A DNA stretch of 64,000 nucleotides from Escherichia phage GEP001. The stretch lies in the sequence record PV173775, one strand, 5' to 3'. Numbering within the stretch: position 1 is the first letter of the stretch; every line of letters starts with the position of its first letter. Below are positions 903 to 8,098 of the stretch, one piece after another. The notes beneath the pieces were generated by a model. It did no database searches, was not told where the DNA came from, and saw only the letters and a list, made by a program, of their open reading frames with translations. The translations under genes were made by a program, and so were the position numbers.

Positions 903-2359
903 TTCTTAAAATTCTGAATGAAATAGCATCTATTGGATCAACTAAGCAGAAGCAAGCAATTCTTGAAAAGAATAAAGATAATGAATTGCTTAAACGAGTA
1001 TATCGTCTGACTTATTCTCGTGGGTTACAGTATTATATCAAGAAATGGCCTAAACCTGGTATTGCTACCCAGAGTTTTGGAATGCTGACTATTACCGATA
1101 TGCTTGACTTCATTGAATTCACGTTAGCTACTCGGAAATTGACTGGAAATGCAGCAATTGAGGAATTAACTGGATATATCACTGACGGTAAAAAGGATGA
1201 TGTTGAAGTTTTACGTCGAGTTATGATGCGAGACCTTGAATGCGGTGCTTCAGTATCTATTGCAAACAAAGTTTGGCCAGGTTTAATTCCTGAACAACCT
1301 CAAATGCTGGCAAGTTCTTATGATGAAAAAGGCATTAGTAAGAATATCAAGTTTCCAGCTTTTGCGCAGTTAAAAGCAGATGGAGCTCGGTGTTTTGCTG
1401 AAGTTAGAGGTGATGAATTAGATGATGTTCGTCTTTTATCACGAGCTGGCAATGAATATCTAGGATTAGATCTTCTTAAGGAAGAGTTAATCAAAATGAC
1501 TGCTGAAGCCCGCCAGATTCATCCAGAAGGTGTGTTAATTGATGGCGAATTGGTATACCATGAGCAAGTTGAAAAGGAACCAGAAGGCCTAGATTTTCTT
1601 TTTGATGCTCCTGAAATCAGTAAAGCTAAAGAGTTTGCCGAAGTAGCTGAATCTCGTACTGCTTCTAATGGAATCGCCAATAAATCTTTAAAGGGAACTA
1701 TTTCAGAAAAAGAAGCCAAATGCATGAAGTTTCAGGTCTGGGATTATGTTCCGTTGGTAGAAATATACGGTCTTCCGGCGTTTCGTTTAAAATATGATGT
1801 ACGTTTTTCTAAACTAGAACAAATGACATCAGGATATGATAAAGTAATTTTAATTGAAAACCAGCTAGTAAATAACCTAGATGAAGCTAAGGTAATTTAT
1901 AAAAAGTATATTGACCAAGGTCTTGAAGGTATTATTCTCAAAAATACCGATGGATTGTGGGAAAATGCTCGTTCAAAAAATCTCTATAAATTTAAAGAAG
2001 TAATTGATGTTGATTTAAAAATTGTAGGAATTTATCCTCACCGTAAAGACCCTACTAAAGCAGGTGGATTTATTCTTGAATCAGAGTGTGGAAAAATTAA
2101 AGTAAATGCAGGTTCAGGCTTAAAAGATAAAGCTGGTGTAAAATCACATGAACTTGACCGTACTCGCATTATGGAAAACCAAAATTATTATATTGGAAAA
2201 ATTCTAGAGTGCGAATGCAACGGTTGGTTAAAATCTGATGGCCGCACTGATTACGTTAAATTATTTCTTCCGATTGCGATTCGTTTACGTGAAGATAAAA
2301 CTAAAGCTAATACATTCGAGGATGTATTTGGTGATTTTCATGAGGTAACTGGTCTATGA
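899..2359 (+). CDS. 30: ATP-dependent DNA ligase (T4 gp30)
   Basis: 486 aa; N-terminus MILKILNEIASIGSTKQKQAILEKNKDNELLKRVYRL matches T4 DNA ligase as recalled; adenylation motif K-A-D-G in FAQLKADGARCF. Confidence 0.95.
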   Translation: MILKILNEIASIGSTKQKQAILEKNKDNELLKRVYRLTYSRGLQYYIKKWPKPGIATQSFGMLTITDMLDFIEFTLATRKLTGNAAIEELTGYITDGKKDDVEVLRRVMMRDLECGASVSIANKVWPGLIPEQPQMLASSYDEKGISKNIKFPAFAQLKADGARCFAEVRGDELDDVRLLSRAGNEYLGLDLLKEELIKMTAEARQIHPEGVLIDGELVYHEQVEKEPEGLDFLFDAPEISKAKEFAEVAESRTASNGIANKSLKGTISEKEAKCMKFQVWDYVPLVEIYGLPAFRLKYDVRFSKLEQMTSGYDKVILIENQLVNNLDEAKVIYKKYIDQGLEGIILKNTDGLWENARSKNLYKFKEVIDVDLKIVGIYPHRKDPTKAGGFILESECGKIKVNAGSGLKDKAGVKSHELDRTRIMENQNYYIGKILECECNGWLKSDGRTDYVKLFLPIAIRLREDKTKANTFEDVFGDFHEVTGL

Positions 2360-2544
2360 AAGCTTACTTAGAAACAATTGTTATAGCTCAAAAAGAAGGT
2401 GGAGATGTTTCTACTTCTGTATCACAAGTCATTCTCGAATTTGTAGATGCATATGCTTATAATAAATTTACAGAAACATTTGATGCCTATGAAAAAGGGC
2501 CAAAGTTTGAAATATATCGTACTCTCTTACCATTAGATTATTAA
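2356..2544 (+). CDS. small hypothetical protein, 62 aa
   Basis: ORF overlapping ligase stop (ATGA), followed by hairpin terminator at 2543-2560; no homology recognised. Confidence 0.35.
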   Translation: MKAYLETIVIAQKEGGDVSTSVSQVILEFVDAYAYNKFTETFDAYEKGPKFEIYRTLLPLDY

Positions 2545-2560
2545 AGGCCTTCGGGCCTTT
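2543..2560 (+). terminator. hairpin terminator after ligase-region ORF
   Basis: AAAGGCC-TTCG-GGCCTTT then AATTTT. Confidence 0.5.
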
Positions 2561-2565
2561 AATTT

Positions 2566-2573
2566 TATAAATA
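2566..2573 (+). promoter_or_regulatory. T4-type late promoter TATAAATA upstream of alt copy 1
   Basis: Exact TATAAATA about 20 nt upstream of the ATG. Confidence 0.6.
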
Positions 2574-2593
2574 GAATAAACACTAGAGAGGAT

Positions 2594-4690
2594 ATGATGG
2601 AACTCATTACAGAATTATTTGACGAAGATACTACTCTTCCGATTACAAACTTAAATCCAAAGAAGAAAATACCGCAAATTTTTTCAGTTCATGTTGATGA
2701 CGCAATTGAACAACCAGGCTTTCGTTTATGTACCTATACATCTGGAGGTGATACTAACCGTGATTTAAAGATGGGCGATAAAATGATGCATATTGTTCCT
2801 TTTACATTAACTGCTAAAGGTTCAATTGCTAAATTAAAAGGTCTCGGTCCAAGCCCAATTAATTACATCAATTCAGTTTTTACTGTTGCAATGCAGACGA
2901 TGCGCCAGTATAAAATTGATGCCTGTATGCTTCGTATTCTTAAGTCTAAAACTGCTGGTCAAGCTCGACAAATTCAAGTTATTGCTGATAGACTTATCCG
3001 TAGTCGTTCAGGCGGCAGATACGTCCTTCTTAAGGAACTCTGGGATTACGATAAAAAGTATGCATATATTCTTATACATCGCAAAAATGTATCACTAGAA
3101 GACATTCCAGGAGTTCCAGAAATTAGTACCGAGCTCTTTACTAAAGTTGAATCGAAGGTCGGCGATGTTTATATCAATAAAGATACTGGAGCTCAAGTAA
3201 CTAAAAATGAGGCAATTGCAGCATCTATTGCGCAAGAAAATGATAAACGTTCTGACCAAGCTGTAATCGTTAAAGTTAAAATTTCCCGTAGAGCAATTGC
3301 ACAAAGTCAGTCATTGGAATCTTCTAGATTTGAAAGTGAATTATTCCAGAAATATGAATCTACCGCAGCTAATTTCAATAAACCTGCTACAGCTCCTTTA
3401 ATTCCCGAAGCAGAAGAAATGAAGCTTGGAATTAATTCATTAGCTTCTAAAACTAAGGCAGCAAAAATTATTGCCGAAGGAACCGCAGATGAACTTCACT
3501 ATGACTATAAATTCTTTTCAAAAAGTGATGTTAATGAAGTTTCTGAAAAAATTAAAGATGTAATTCTTAATGCGATTAAAAATGAACCAACTACTTCAAT
3601 AAAATGTTTAGAGAAGTATGCAGCAGCTATTAATAAATTCTTTGAAGAATATAAAGATACTTGGCTTGATAAACATAATAAAACTCGTAAAGGGCAGCCA
3701 GATGAAGTCTGGGAAGAAATAACTAAAAATTCCTGGAACGCAGCAAAAACTAAATTCCTCAAACGAATGATTTATAGCTTTTCTGGAATTGGTGCAGGTC
3801 CAATGATTGATATTACTATTGCCCGTGATGGTTCTAAATATACTCCATCACAAAAGCGCGGCATTAGAGAGTATTGTGGTTCAGGATATACTGACATCAA
3901 TAATCTTCTTTTGGGTCGTTACAATCCAGAACGATATGATGTAATGAGTGAAAAAGAAATTGAATCTGCGATAAATAATTTAGATTCAGCTTTTGAAAAT
4001 GGTGACCGTATACCAGAAGGCATTACAGTTTATCGTGCTCAAAGTATGACTGCTCCTATATACGAAGCGCTAGTTAAAAATAAAGTGTTCTATTTCAGAA
4101 ATTTTGTATCTACTTCTTTAACTCCTATCATTTTTGGACGTTTTGGAATTACACATGCTGGTATCGGTCTTTTAGAACCAGAAGCTCGTAATGAATTAAC
4201 AGTTGATAAAAATGAAGAAGGAATAACTATTAATCCAAACGAAATAAGAGCGTATAAAGAAAATCCTGAATACGTTAAAGTTCAAATAGGATGGGCAATT
4301 GATGGAGCTCATAAAGTTAATGTTGTATATCCAGGAAGTCTCGGAATAGCAACAGAAGCTGAAGTAATTCTACCACGCGGATTGATGGTCAAAGTTAATA
4401 AAATAACTGATGCTTCTAATAATGACGGAACAACATCTAATAATACAAAACTCATTCAAGCTGAAGTTATGACTACGGAAGAACTCACCGAATCAGTCAT
4501 TTATGACGGTGACCGTCTAATGGAAACCGGCGAAGTAGTTGCAATGACAGGTGATATTGAAATAGAAGACAGAGTTGACTTTGCATCATTTGTTTCATCA
4601 AATGTTAAACAGAAAGCAGAATCATCTCTCGGAATTATTGCGTCTTGCATAGATATTACAAACATGCCTTACAAGTTCGTTCAAGGATAA
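2594..4690 (+). CDS. alt: Alt-like NAD-protein ADP-ribosyltransferase, copy 1 (capsid-packaged)
   Basis: 698 aa; N-terminus MELITELFDEDTTLPITNL resembles T4 Alt; C-terminal R / S-T-S / E-x-E ART motifs (TVYRAQ, FVSTSL, EAEVILPRG); late promoter TATAAATA at 2566-2573; true start may be the second Met (2597). Confidence 0.85.
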   Translation: MMELITELFDEDTTLPITNLNPKKKIPQIFSVHVDDAIEQPGFRLCTYTSGGDTNRDLKMGDKMMHIVPFTLTAKGSIAKLKGLGPSPINYINSVFTVAMQTMRQYKIDACMLRILKSKTAGQARQIQVIADRLIRSRSGGRYVLLKELWDYDKKYAYILIHRKNVSLEDIPGVPEISTELFTKVESKVGDVYINKDTGAQVTKNEAIAASIAQENDKRSDQAVIVKVKISRRAIAQSQSLESSRFESELFQKYESTAANFNKPATAPLIPEAEEMKLGINSLASKTKAAKIIAEGTADELHYDYKFFSKSDVNEVSEKIKDVILNAIKNEPTTSIKCLEKYAAAINKFFEEYKDTWLDKHNKTRKGQPDEVWEEITKNSWNAAKTKFLKRMIYSFSGIGAGPMIDITIARDGSKYTPSQKRGIREYCGSGYTDINNLLLGRYNPERYDVMSEKEIESAINNLDSAFENGDRIPEGITVYRAQSMTAPIYEALVKNKVFYFRNFVSTSLTPIIFGRFGITHAGIGLLEPEARNELTVDKNEEGITINPNEIRAYKENPEYVKVQIGWAIDGAHKVNVVYPGSLGIATEAEVILPRGLMVKVNKITDASNNDGTTSNNTKLIQAEVMTTEELTESVIYDGDRLMETGEVVAMTGDIEIEDRVDFASFVSSNVKQKAESSLGIIASCIDITNMPYKFVQG

Positions 4691-4693
4691 ATC

Positions 4694-6751
4694 ATGGAAC
4701 TTATTACAGAATTATTTGACGGCGCTTCGGCGCCGGTTGTTAACTTAAATCCTAAGCATAAAATACCTCAAATTTTTGCTATTCAAGCCGGTGAAGAAAG
4801 CGTGCTTCCTGGATTTAGATTTTGTACATACACCTCTGGCGGTGATACAAATAAAAACGTTAAGCCAGGCGATAAAATGATGCATATCGTAATGATAGGT
4901 GTTAATGAGAAACTATCATTAGTTAAACTTAAAAACTTAGGTGGAAATCCAATTGGTGTCATTAATGCGGTTTTTGATACTGCTCTTCAGACAATGAAAC
5001 AGTACAAAATTGACGCATGCTTATTCCGCGTACTAAAGAGTAAAACAAATGGCGCAGCTCGACAAATTCAAGTTATTGCTGACCGTTTAGTACGTACTAA
5101 AGGAGCAGGTCGATATGTTCTTTTAAAAGAAATCTGGGATTACGATAAAAAGTACGCATATATTATGGTTTACCGTAAAAATGCTAATTTAGAAGACATT
5201 CCAGGTGTACCTCCTATTTCAACTGAGTTATTCACAAAAGTTGAATCAAAGGTTGGTGATGTTTATGTAGATGTTAAAACAGGTAATGCTGTTCCTAAAG
5301 CTGTTGCTGTTGCTGCTTCTATTGCTTTAGAAAATGATAAGCGCACGGATCAAGCTGTTATTCAGAAAACTAAAATTAGTCGTCGATTAGCAGCACAAGC
5401 TCAATACTCTACTGTCGATGCTTCACTTCAGGGTGATAGCTTCGCTGCTAAGAAATATCAAGAGTTTGAATCTAAAGTTCCGGTATATAAAGCAGAAGGA
5501 CCAATGAACTCCGGCGTTATTCAGGTTGGTTCAAACTTCAGCAAAGGAGCTATCGGTGGTATGAGAAGTGCTTCTCGTTTTAAATCTAATGATTATGAAC
5601 TAGAAAGCTTCCGAAATCATATTGCATTGGCTCATGCACGTTTACGTGATCCATCTATCAAGTTACAGAGCGATATAACATATCAAGGTTCTCAAGAATA
5701 TTTAAAGAATAAAGAATTTTTTGATTATAAAACTGATAAAATTTTAAGCGATCTTGCTGACATTAATATTTCTAATAGCTTTGATGTTATTAAGAAAATT
5801 GTCAATGATTTAGTTAAAGGTTCTAAAGCCACACCAGATGAAAAGGTAGCTATTGTTCAATTTGTCATGAATGGCATTTATAAATTGATTAATGAGTCTG
5901 CTTCTCAAGCGTATGAATATGCAAGTACTGAAGTACCCCCAAAAGGATTAACTCAAGCTGAGTCTGATGTAATTGAAGATTATTGCGCAGATTCATATGT
6001 TGAAATGAACTCGTTCCTTTTAGGTAAACCAGATTCTACTCGTGAAGAATATATGGAACGAGCTATTAAACACATCGAGACAATGGATTCTGCTTTTGCC
6101 AAAGGATCAGTTCTTCCTCCAGGAACTACGCTTTACCGTGGCCAAGAAGTTACCTTTAAAACTTTACGTCATAATATTGAAAATAAAATGTTCTATTTTA
6201 AGAACTTCGTATCCACATCGCTTAAACCAAATATCTTCGGTGAGTATGGTAAAAACTATATGGCCCTAGATGATTCCGGCACAGTATTTTCTGGTGAAGG
6301 AGAAGGTTCAGTTGATGCTGAAGATTTGATGCATATGGGCAGTCATTCTGCGTATGCCAATGAAGATGCTGAAACTAGCGTTGGTATGGTAATTAAAGGA
6401 GCTGAGCGAATCAAAGTTATCGTTCCAGGTCATTTATCAGGATTTCCATCAGAAGCTGAAGTTATTTTACCGCGTGGAATTTTGCTGAAGATTAATAAAG
6501 TGAGTACGTACATGATGAAAGAAACTGCTTATAACAAGTATCTAATCGAAGGCACAATCGTTCCTCCTTCTGAACAATTAGAAGAATCGGTATATGATGG
6601 TGACCATCTGATGGAAACTGGTGAAGTTCGTCCAATGACTGGATTTAACCAATTCCTTGTAGAAGAATCAAAAGAAGAGGAAAACGAAGTTTCTCAAATC
6701 TTGGCTTCTTTGGTTAACATCAACGGAATGTCTAAAAAGTTCAAGATGTAG
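4694..6751 (+). CDS. Alt-like ADP-ribosyltransferase, copy 2 (tandem paralog)
   Basis: 685 aa; N-terminal ~230 aa clearly homologous to copy 1 (MELITELFD..., GFRFCTYTSGGDTN, KMMHIV, QYKIDAC, RQIQVIADRL); middle region diverged; ART motifs retained (TLYRGQ, FVSTSL, SEAEVILPRG). Confidence 0.8.
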   Translation: MELITELFDGASAPVVNLNPKHKIPQIFAIQAGEESVLPGFRFCTYTSGGDTNKNVKPGDKMMHIVMIGVNEKLSLVKLKNLGGNPIGVINAVFDTALQTMKQYKIDACLFRVLKSKTNGAARQIQVIADRLVRTKGAGRYVLLKEIWDYDKKYAYIMVYRKNANLEDIPGVPPISTELFTKVESKVGDVYVDVKTGNAVPKAVAVAASIALENDKRTDQAVIQKTKISRRLAAQAQYSTVDASLQGDSFAAKKYQEFESKVPVYKAEGPMNSGVIQVGSNFSKGAIGGMRSASRFKSNDYELESFRNHIALAHARLRDPSIKLQSDITYQGSQEYLKNKEFFDYKTDKILSDLADINISNSFDVIKKIVNDLVKGSKATPDEKVAIVQFVMNGIYKLINESASQAYEYASTEVPPKGLTQAESDVIEDYCADSYVEMNSFLLGKPDSTREEYMERAIKHIETMDSAFAKGSVLPPGTTLYRGQEVTFKTLRHNIENKMFYFKNFVSTSLKPNIFGEYGKNYMALDDSGTVFSGEGEGSVDAEDLMHMGSHSAYANEDAETSVGMVIKGAERIKVIVPGHLSGFPSEAEVILPRGILLKINKVSTYMMKETAYNKYLIEGTIVPPSEQLEESVYDGDHLMETGEVRPMTGFNQFLVEESKEEENEVSQILASLVNINGMSKKFKM

Positions 6752-6780
6752 TTTACAAGTCCCTCGTGTTGTGTTATAGT
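6752..6780 (+). promoter_or_regulatory. sigma70-type early promoter for the 96-aa ORF
   Basis: -35 TTTACA (6752-6757), 17 nt spacer, -10 TATAGT (6775-6780). Confidence 0.55.
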
Positions 6781-6811
6781 AATTTTACTTACATAACATG
6801 AGGAACACAAA

Positions 6812-7102
6812 ATGAAATCTTCTTTGCGCTTTTTAGGTCAAGAACTTGTAGTTGAAGGCGTTATTCCTGCTGATAATGCTTTTAATGAAGCAGTTTATGA
6901 TGAATTTATCAAAATTTTTGGAACAGATAAAAAGTTTGGAATTTTTCCTTCTGAAAATTTTTCAAAGCCACAGCAGACTGAAAGCATTTTCCAAGGTGTA
7001 GTAACAGGTAAATTTGAGTCAGAAGCTCCGGTAAAAATTGAAGTTTATATTGAAGACAGTTTAGTTGCTTCAGTTGCTGCTTTTATTTCATTCCGTAAAT
7101 AA
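6812..7102 (+). CDS. hypothetical protein, 96 aa (early-gene cassette)
   Basis: ORF with SD GAGGA, preceded by sigma70-like early promoter (6752-6780) and followed by hairpin 7107-7128. Confidence 0.5.
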   Translation: MKSSLRFLGQELVVEGVIPADNAFNEAVYDEFIKIFGTDKKFGIFPSENFSKPQQTESIFQGVVTGKFESEAPVKIEVYIEDSLVASVAAFISFRK

Positions 7103-7106
7103 AAAT

Positions 7107-7128
7107 ATGGGGACCGAAAGGTCCCCAT
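7107..7128. terminator. bidirectional hairpin terminator between the 96-aa ORF and gene 54
   Basis: ATGGGGACC-GAAA-GGTCCCCAT flanked by A-run upstream and T-run downstream. Confidence 0.65.
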
Positions 7129-7132
7129 TGTT

Positions 7133-8098
7133 TTATATTGCTCCTAATATTTTACTTTGCGAGTTGACAATTCCCGTCATAGTATTAATGTTTGAAATGC
7201 TTCCAGCAGTTCCTCCTAATCTACTAAGTCGTGAAAGCGAATTAGATAGTCCAGTAACGCCTCCGCTATTTCCGAGAACGCTTTGAATGCCATTTATAGC
7301 AGCAGATTCAAGCCACTCAAGCGCAGCTTGTCTATCAACTGCTCCAGCCTGCATAACTCTATACGCAAAAGTAACATCAAATGTAGTTATTTGGTTATCT
7401 CCATCATATGATAACTCAGGAGCGCTCACTGACACTGGAATGCATCCGGTGAACATCACTGCAGTATGAGGTAATCCATTACGAGCATGAAGATTAACTT
7501 GAATATCTGCCTCGACATCTTGTGGTAAAGCACGCAGTCCAGTTACTGGGTCTTGAACAGAGTTAACCCAGTCTTGCATTGCACGATAGTTACATGCTTC
7601 TGAATCCATTCTAAATGAAATAACCAAAGGGTCTAATTCTCTCCCAGTTATACGAATATTAGGAGAATTATAGTTCCAGTCAGTTTCATAGGATAATCTA
7701 TTCTCTGGCATTTTTACAGAATATATCATCAATCCAGATGAGTTATATGCCATGTTAAAGAAGTCAATTAAATATGTACCAACTGTAAATGAGCCCAATA
7801 AACTTTGAACTGTACGTTGACTCATGGCACCAATAAGATATTTACTAACCCCTGATTTTCTTATCAGTTTTTGTGTGCCAGCTGTAATTAGCGTGGTAAT
7901 TCCCTGATTAATATCGCCTTGAGTCAATCCTAACCAATCTGAATTTAGACCCAAGTTATTATAAGAAAAGTTGCTAATTGAACTTATCAACGAAGAGCTT
8001 TTAGTTGATGGAGTTGTCGCAAAAACGCAGCTAAACATATTATTACGTTGGAAATCTGCGTTTATTGCTTGATTATTAAATTCCTCTAAAGAATACAT
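7133..8098 (-). CDS. 54: baseplate tail-tube initiator (T4 gp54)
   Basis: 321 aa, length and position match T4 gp54 between alt region and gene 48. Confidence 0.85.
   Translation of the reverse strand: MYSLEEFNNQAINADFQRNNMFSCVFATTPSTKSSSLISSISNFSYNNLGLNSDWLGLTQGDINQGITTLITAGTQKLIRKSGVSKYLIGAMSQRTVQSLLGSFTVGTYLIDFFNMAYNSSGLMIYSVKMPENRLSYETDWNYNSPNIRITGRELDPLVISFRMDSEACNYRAMQDWVNSVQDPVTGLRALPQDVEADIQVNLHARNGLPHTAVMFTGCIPVSVSAPELSYDGDNQITTFDVTFAYRVMQAGAVDRQAALEWLESAAINGIQSVLGNSGGVTGLSNSLSRLSRLGGTAGSISNINTMTGIVNSQSKILGAI

Follow-up and report, generated by a model that had tools for sequence, protein, structure and literature searches.

A second gene for an Alt-type ADP-ribosyltransferase (ART), here termed Alt2, lies directly behind alt in a stretch of 64,000 nucleotides (nt) of DNA from Escherichia phage GEP001 (sequence record PV173775), a T4-like (Tequatrovirus) genome segment that is referred to below as the window. 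The reading favored here, at a probability of roughly 0.6, is that Alt2 is an old, functional paralogue of T4 Alt, kept by most Tequatrovirus phages and lost from T4, which serves as a packaged effector complementary to Alt. The case for it is made from homology, conservation and genetic evidence of an indirect kind, and what is shown here is the structure of the gene, its intact fold and catalytic residues, the purifying selection acting upon it, its wide conservation and the nature of the remnant that it left behind in T4. The second alt gene is itself already known and annotated (the window copy is one more allele), and its presence will be no surprise to a T-even phage specialist.

Two intact genes and their products

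On a map of the open reading frames (ORFs), the plus strand of the window carries, in order, the gene for DNA ligase gp30 (899-2359), alt.1 (2356-2544), alt (2594/2597-4690), Alt2 (4694-6751) and alt.-3 (6812-7102), while genes 54, 48 and 29 lie on the opposite strand beyond alt.-3. The position of Alt2, in the late-gene neighborhood between gene 30/alt.1 and alt.-3/gene 54, matches the locus of the Alt family in T4, T2 and T6. An earlier note on this DNA, made from the letters alone, had described two full-length alt-like genes placed head to tail and 3 nt apart, and this description holds: the two ORFs occupy 2594-4690 and 4694-6751, and the spacer between them (4691-4693) reads ATC. The alt ORF starts with two ATGs (ATGATG, 2594-2599), so that its product would have 698 residues if translated from 2594 and 697 residues if translated from 2597 (2597-4690, plus strand). 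The latter, which begins MELITE, is the likelier protein start, because the GAGG of the ribosome-binding site is separated from the second ATG by 5 nt and from the first by 2 nt; the second ATG (697 residues) is annotated in the GenBank records of T2 and T6, and the first (698 residues) in the BASEL records.

The two proteins are 41% identical in a BLASTP comparison (E 3e-160). The homology of the N-terminal ~230 residues and the strong divergence of the central region, both proposed in the note, are borne out by the alignment, with 164 of 243 residues identical (67%) over columns 1-250 (approximately the first 245 residues) and 20 of 155 (13%) over columns 251-450; after column 450, in the catalytic part and tail, the figure is 95 of 253 (38%). 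Both products match Pfam family PF03496 above its threshold (E 1.3e-37 for alt, 3.1e-20 for Alt2) and, from end to end, phrog_802, 'Alt-like RNA polymerase ADP-ribosyltransferase' (E 1.8e-272 for alt; 4.5e-255 over residues 1-685 for Alt2). The R / S-T-S / E-x-E signature is likewise present in both copies, as VYRAQ (alt) or LYRGQ (Alt2), STS and EAEVILPRG; in the alignment, the corresponding residues of the plus-strand alt product are R480, S505-T-S507 and E587-A-E589.

Alt2 (4694-6751, plus strand; named 'alt.-2' or 'altb' elsewhere) encodes a protein of 685 residues and 76 kDa, all of whose parts are read from the same strand. Its N-terminal domain (4694-5428, residues 1-245) starts with MELITE, has an isoelectric point (pI) of 9.5 and is ~68% identical to that of Alt. 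The middle region that follows (5429-5938, residues 246-415) is predicted to be all-helical and is ~9-13% identical to its counterpart in Alt; it is the most variable part of the Alt family, and for many distant members the alignment is restricted to the two stretches that flank it. The ART domain (5939-6568, residues 416-625) holds the catalytic codons for R482 (6137-6139), S507-T-S509 (6212-6220) and E587-A-E589 (6452-6460), together with an acidic loop of low model confidence (residues 518-541), and is followed by an acidic tail (6569-6748, pI 4.3) with a conserved YDGDxLMETGE motif and a terminal helix.

In an alignment of 59 family sequences, Alt2 has all nine of the family-invariant residues (Y430, D465, R482, S507, E587, E589, P593, R594 and G595). 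The second glutamate of its E-x-E motif corresponds to E577 of T4 Alt, the mutation of which to alanine abolishes activity (PMC11404850). An AlphaFold2 model computed from the same alignment is of good confidence, with a predicted local distance difference test score (pLDDT) of 82.6 and a predicted template-modeling score (pTM) of 0.79, and its C-terminal domain can be superposed on R-S-E ADP-ribosyltransferases of known structure. Residues 414-620 match PF03496 (ADPrib_exo_Tox) with 72.8 bits against a cut-off of 23.4. Alt2 has the ART fold of the R-S-E clade of mono-ADP-ribosyltransferases, and the inactivating substitutions or broken fold that the note had named as grounds for abandoning its proposal are not found. 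A sequence search of the PDB gave no match for Alt2 at E <= 0.01 and, for Alt, weak matches to CdtA and iota-toxin only; a search of NCBIfam gave no matches, nor did a search of Rfam with positions 2200-7300, and a structure comparison found no informative structural relative of the N-terminal domain.

With T4 Alt, Alt2 shares homology from end to end, the N-terminal domain, a helical middle, the R-S-ExE ART domain, an acidic tail, the locus (ligase/alt.1 to alt.-3/gene 54) and the N-terminal MELITE. It differs from T4 Alt in overall identity (41%, with 68% in the N-terminal domain and ~8% in the middle) and in the variable acidic loop, particular to Alt2, that separates STS from ExE. The R-S-E toxins of the C3-like/VIP2/Vis group (PF03496) have the same fold, catalytic arginine, S-T-S and E-x-E; unlike them, Alt2 (14-27% identical) carries a phage-specific N-terminal part of ~415 residues and is not a secreted toxin.

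Conservation of Alt2 and its loss from T4

A megablast search with the locus returned 356 phage records with at least 80% coverage and 95-98% identity, most of them annotated with two 'Alt-like RNA polymerase ADP-ribosyltransferase' genes, and the 1.7 kb specific to Alt2 was found in 401 phage records at 93-98% identity. T2 and T6 have the identical layout (a gene of 2094 nt, 3 nt, and a gene of 2058 nt), as do phiD1, RB68, wV7, Shfl2, Bas40 and Bas37, and approximately four in five records of Tequatrovirus type keep Alt2. Judged from these records, most Tequatrovirus phages have the two-gene arrangement (it is seen in T2, T6 and the RB phages, and in 401 records), and T4 represents a derived, deleted state. 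The gene is called 'alt.-2' in RB68 (and in the Shfl2 record, which cites RB14, RB32 and RB51), 'ADP-ribosyltransferase Alt2' in the BASEL records (Bas40, Bas37) and 'altb' in the SP18 record. The full-length alt.-2/Alt2 of the Tequatrovirus phages (T2, T6, RB14/RB32/RB51/RB68, Shfl2, wV7, Bas37 and Bas40) is the same gene as that of the window, with 685 residues and 93-99% identity; the altb of SP18, in contrast, differs from it in having another type of ART domain, closest to that of MX01_195. Multiple copies also occur beyond the genus: Dhakavirus MX01 has three full alt copies spaced 3 nt apart, Gaprivervirus SP18 has alta and altb, and Aeromonas phage UP87 has two alt copies and a fragment. 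Duplication of alt had been described by Nolan et al. (2006; PMC1524935), who regarded T4 alt.-1/alt.-2, RB49ORF183c and 44RRORF188c as products of paralogous duplication and 44RRORF187c as a second, full-length copy. No paper on the function of Alt2 came up in a literature search that combined its name with ADP-ribosyltransferase and phage.

The view that the second copy is redundant or decaying, and serves no function itself, is very improbable. It would account for the decay of the gene in T4 (by frameshift and deletion) and in phage sutha. However, among seven genomes compared (the window, T2, T6, phiD1, RB68, wV7 and Shfl2) both ORFs are intact in every case, and pairwise ratios of nonsynonymous to synonymous divergence (dN/dS) are 0.035-0.08 for alt and 0.02-0.07 for Alt2 at a dS of ~0.1-0.27 (~0.2 for the Alt2 comparison), with values of 0.034 for the ART part of Alt2 and 0.017 for its N-terminal domain. 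Alt2 is under strong purifying selection and therefore is not a decaying duplicate, so that the dN/dS analysis effectively refutes that view; the 401 records noted above, a positional orthologue in another genus and an insertion phenotype in phage Bas37 that is unlike that of Alt also speak against it. Synonymous divergence between alt and Alt2 within a genome is saturated. A recent duplication is ruled out by this saturation in combination with the cross-genus orthologue. The note is largely right on the facts, the two genes being intact alt paralogues; a recent duplication followed by divergence of the second copy is, however, too simple an account of them.

The T4 genome (NC_000866) has the order 30, alt.1, alt, alt.-1, alt.-2, alt.-3, with a single full-length alt followed by small ORFs, as the note had stated, and not two full-length genes, which would have removed the grounds for its proposal. 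From this order, copy 1 is the positional equivalent of T4 alt, and in T4 the place of copy 2 is taken by alt.-1 and alt.-2. In a blastn comparison, window positions 5042-6731 are absent from T4, and the missing segment (5033-6740, plus strand) is accounted for by a 1,699-bp deletion between 9-bp direct repeats, CTAAAGAGT (5033-5041) and CTAAAAAGT (6732-6740), which meet in a microhomology junction. T4 also lacks one A from a run of five near codon 55, a -1 frameshift that split what was left into alt.-1 and alt.-2. These two ORFs correspond to the first ~116 codons of Alt2, and the families that contain them (phrog_23015 and phrog_15247) match Alt2 (E 2e-40 and 3e-38) more closely than Alt (1e-21 and 2e-19). 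By this alignment, T4 alt.-1 and alt.-2 are together the remnant of a whole Alt2 gene, whereas the note in the T4 record takes them for a duplicate of the initial portion of alt. The T4-type junction was found in 91 phage records. A comparison of losses that covered two further loci (L015, 7092-7478, and L005, 6012-6128) included phage FL23, in which the T4-type junction occurs with no frameshift and leaves an ORF of 128 residues, and phage sutha, in which an independent deletion has kept the last 38 codons of Alt2.

Modular evolution of the locus

At the DNA level, copy 1 is 96-99% identical to T4 alt over codons 1-240, 38-71% identical over codons 241-600 and 97% identical over the last ~40 codons (~660-697); by this measure the two genes carry different alleles of the middle and ART cassette (codons ~241-600). 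The ART core of copy 1 (codons ~451-630) was compared with an alt gene of Dhakavirus MX01, MX01_196 (1864-3948 of locus L011), to which it is 87-94% identical in DNA and 95% in protein, and the genes that flank the locus are ~65-67% identical between the window and MX01. Because the ART core is so much more similar than the background of ~65% in the flanking genes, the comparison suggests that the catalytic cassette has been exchanged horizontally between genera.

Neighbor-joining trees with 200 bootstrap replicates were made from a small sample (the window copies, with N-terminal domains at 2597-3331 and 4694-5428, and those of loci L011, L012 and L013). In the tree of the N-terminal domain, sequences group by genome, with Alt and Alt2 of Tequatrovirus together in 200 of 200 replicates. 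In the tree of the ART domain, they group by type across genera: Alt pairs with MX01_196, and Alt2 with its positional orthologue in Dhakavirus, MX01_194, each in 200 of 200 replicates, and the ART domain of MX01_195 pairs with that of SP18 altb (76% identity). Given the conflict between the two trees, and within the limits of so small a sample, the N-terminal similarity of the copies is best read as a product of homogenization within genomes, or of the exchange of cassettes onto a genus-specific N-terminal module, rather than of slow divergence; no description of this pattern (N-terminal domains by genome, ART domains by type) was found.

The pattern suggests that the N-terminal part is a module specific to the genus, with a plausible role in delivery, and that the effector cassettes joined to it are exchangeable. 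A wider proposal, put forward tentatively and at rather less than even odds, is that the alt locus is an array of one to three injected effectors with exchangeable cassettes, in which the targets of Alt2 would differ from those of Alt and its contribution to fitness on K-12 would be the greater. The architecture in that proposal, held with the same reserve, would be a genus-specific N-terminal head-targeting domain and a C-terminal tail around a middle/ART cassette that moves between genera. Its logic resembles that of the MuF-fused or polyvalent head-packaged effectors and polymorphic toxins (Iyer et al. 2017; PMC5512222), in which a conserved N-terminal module is combined with variable C-terminal cassettes that are exchanged horizontally. 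The resemblance is one of logic only, in that a Pfam search of Alt2 found no MuF domain. Three metagenomic proteins, P0226 (1142 residues), P0200 (485) and P0217 (541), match the Alt N-terminal domain at approximately residues 10-165, have no Pfam ADP-ribosyltransferase domain, and may carry other effector domains on an Alt-type N-terminal module. A further Pfam domain, PF26846.1, is precomputed on full-length Alt-family proteins and presumably covers the N-terminal or middle part.

Expression, packaging and function

The note had recognized an obvious late promoter in front of copy 1 only, and a scan of the plus strand agrees. The T4-type late promoter consensus TATAAATA has its single exact match within 2300-7150 at 2566-2573, 24 nt upstream of alt (a match to the consensus only), and is conserved in six related genomes; for Alt2, no candidate late promoter lies within ~440 nt upstream, the nearest site with one mismatch being ~440 nt away. 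The Shine-Dalgarno sequence of Alt2 (AAGGA, 4683-4687, plus strand) lies within the final codons of alt and 6 nt ahead of the start codon of Alt2 (ATG), with the alt stop codon TAA at 4688-4690, and this junction (the Shine-Dalgarno sequence and the 3-nt spacer) is identical in the seven genomes and T4. Because there is a single late promoter upstream of alt, none near Alt2 and a ribosome-binding site embedded in the end of alt, late co-transcription of the two genes is plausible.

Two plus-strand hairpins accompany these signals. One is a GC-rich, UUCG-loop hairpin directly after the alt.1 stop codon (AAAGGCC-TTCG-GGCCTTT, 2543-2560), which is identical in T2, T6, phiD1, RB68, wV7 and Shfl2 and is a probable terminator or RNA-stabilizing element upstream of alt; a terminator has been predicted upstream of alt in five of six T4-like genomes (Nolan 2006; PMC1524935). 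The other (CGGCGC-UUCG-GCGCCG, 4720-4735) lies inside codons 10-14 of Alt2, is stable in both the minimum-free-energy and centroid folds, is identical in the seven genomes and has been kept in T4 alt.-1; it could mark the 3' end of the alt message or dampen translation of Alt2. No claim is made for it as a cold spot of nucleotide-level conservation: the 100 nt that surround it contain 3 variable sites, where the mean is 9.4, and counts as low as this occur in other 100-nt segments.

Alt of T4 belongs to the internal proteins of the phage head and is injected (PMC2988021). Both copies in the window share features that would fit the same route: a basic N-terminal module (pI 9.4-9.5) and the sequence I4-T-E6, in which E6 belongs to an (L/I)xE-(V/L)F motif with nearly invariant E6 and F8 (each kept by at least 90% of the 59 family members). 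The T4 prohead protease (gp21) cleaves at the consensus (L/I)-x-E, and the MELITE N-terminus of Alt and Alt2 presumably provides such a site. In T4, Alt ADP-ribosylates Arg265 of the RNA polymerase alpha subunit, in addition to other host proteins. We infer that Alt2 is likewise packaged and injected, and that it is an active enzyme with targets distinct from those of Alt.

It might instead be supposed that Alt2 is active but not packaged, and acts late in the producing cell upon host or phage proteins, as ModA and ModB do. Such a role would agree with the outcome of the literature search, which found no evidence of Alt2 in virions (the relevant rows of the fD1 proteome being illegible), and with the hairpin at 4720-4735, which could lower its expression relative to alt. 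It is nonetheless quite unlikely, in view of the whole N-terminal domain and (L/I)xE N-terminus that Alt2 shares with packaged Alt. ModA and ModB, the non-packaged ARTs of T4, are proteins of ~200 residues (200 and 207) that have no Alt N-terminal domain.

Data on gene disruption are available for phage Bas37, in the supplementary tables of the HIDEN-SEQ preprint (10.1101/2025.11.20.689424), the main text of which never mentions Alt2. On K-12, insertions hit 116 of the 164 TA sites of Alt2 (bas37_0032; saturation 0.71, class 'Intermediate', 44.5 reads per site) and 164 of the 179 TA sites of Alt (bas37_0033; saturation 0.92, class 'Non-essential', 203.6 reads per site). On the clinical strain CFE331, insertions in Alt are depleted (log2 fold change -1.56, adjusted p 0), a phenotype that Alt2 does not share (+0.12, p 0.66). 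The same preprint reports that T4 Alt helps to evade type I Mokosh and that Bas37 Alt cannot substitute for it. Together, the insertion phenotypes and the lack of interchangeability against Mokosh point to functional differences among the alleles and paralogues of Alt and indicate that Alt and Alt2 are not redundant. These data agree with the note's suggestion that a second ART could modify a different host target, though they are silent on the targets and the injection of Alt2.

The lowered recovery of Alt2 insertions on a laboratory K-12 host, where a pure takeover or anti-defense effector, such as Alt itself, would be expected to be dispensable, is one of several observations that would suit a mainly structural protein, that is, a component of the prohead core or internal head volume with a part in head filling or DNA ejection and with enzymatic activity secondary. 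The N-terminal domain of Alt2 is its most constrained part and is basic, Alt is counted among the core proteins of T4 (PMC11404850), and alt- mutants package more DNA (PMC3012670). However, all nine invariant ART residues are retained, a purely structural role would not require an ART part that is nearly as constrained as the N-terminal domain, and T4 and ~90 other records do without the protein; a mainly structural Alt2 is accordingly judged unlikely.

In the mechanism preferred here, that of a packaged and complementary effector, a late transcript from the single promoter at 2566 would carry both alt and Alt2, and Alt2 would be translated from its own ribosome-binding site within the end of alt. 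The shared basic N-terminal domain of ~245 residues and the (L/I)-x-E protease site would direct both proteins into the prohead, and both would be ejected with the DNA into the next host, where the R-S-ExE cassette of each would mono-ADP-ribosylate arginines in its own set of host proteins. With different sets of target proteins, the two enzymes would be complementary effectors rather than redundant copies.

Several points weigh against this account. A literature search found no enzymatic assay of any Alt2, and no Tequatrovirus virion proteome that mentions it, the table for fD1 (PMC8309999) being illegible at Gp200/Gp201. Judged from the deletions described above, Alt2 has been lost at least twice (in the T4-type lineage and in sutha), and is thus dispensable in some settings. 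The Bas37 insertions also do not display the polarity expected of a simple alt-Alt2 operon: on K-12, insertions in alt are less costly than those in Alt2, which is contrary to a dependence of Alt2 on the alt promoter alone. Either the transposon is not polar (and its authors argue that in general it is not; 10.1101/2025.11.20.689424), or Alt2 has a second promoter, or a truncated Alt2 is itself harmful.

The genes on either side of the pair deserve brief mention. Downstream, alt.-3 (6812-7102) encodes a DUF5498 protein, is preceded by a sigma-70/T4-early-like promoter (TTTACA-17-TATAGT with TG, 6752-6780) and is followed by a bidirectional terminator (7107-7128). Mutants of T4 alt.-3 with C-terminal extensions escape the CmdTAC defense (PMC11618068), and insertions in its Bas37 orthologue are depleted (log2 fold change -2.70, q 0.02) in one comparison with a clinical isolate (10.1101/2025.11.20.689424). 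Upstream, alt.1 (2356-2544, 62 residues) matches Pfam PF24647, 'Phage blade protein' (E 1.9e-29); the labels 'siderophore-interacting protein' and 'double-stranded DNA-binding protein' that it bears in some records look like errors of annotation transfer.

The existence of Alt2 is not news, and the value of the present comparisons is as a pointer to a testable, uncharacterized effector and to the modular evolution of its locus. Knowledge of how phages ADP-ribosylate host proteins has come nearly entirely from T4, a phage that has no Alt2, while most T-even phages, including T2, T6 and many candidates for therapy, carry a strongly conserved second Alt-type enzyme, and the supplementary transposon data for Bas37 suggest that this enzyme matters more than Alt on the laboratory host. 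Should the wider proposal of an array of injected effectors hold, the T4-based count of 'three phage ARTs' would leave out a fourth activity that most relatives of T4 possess, and this activity may have a part in the ways in which T4 differs from T2/T6 in host takeover or in the evasion of host defenses.

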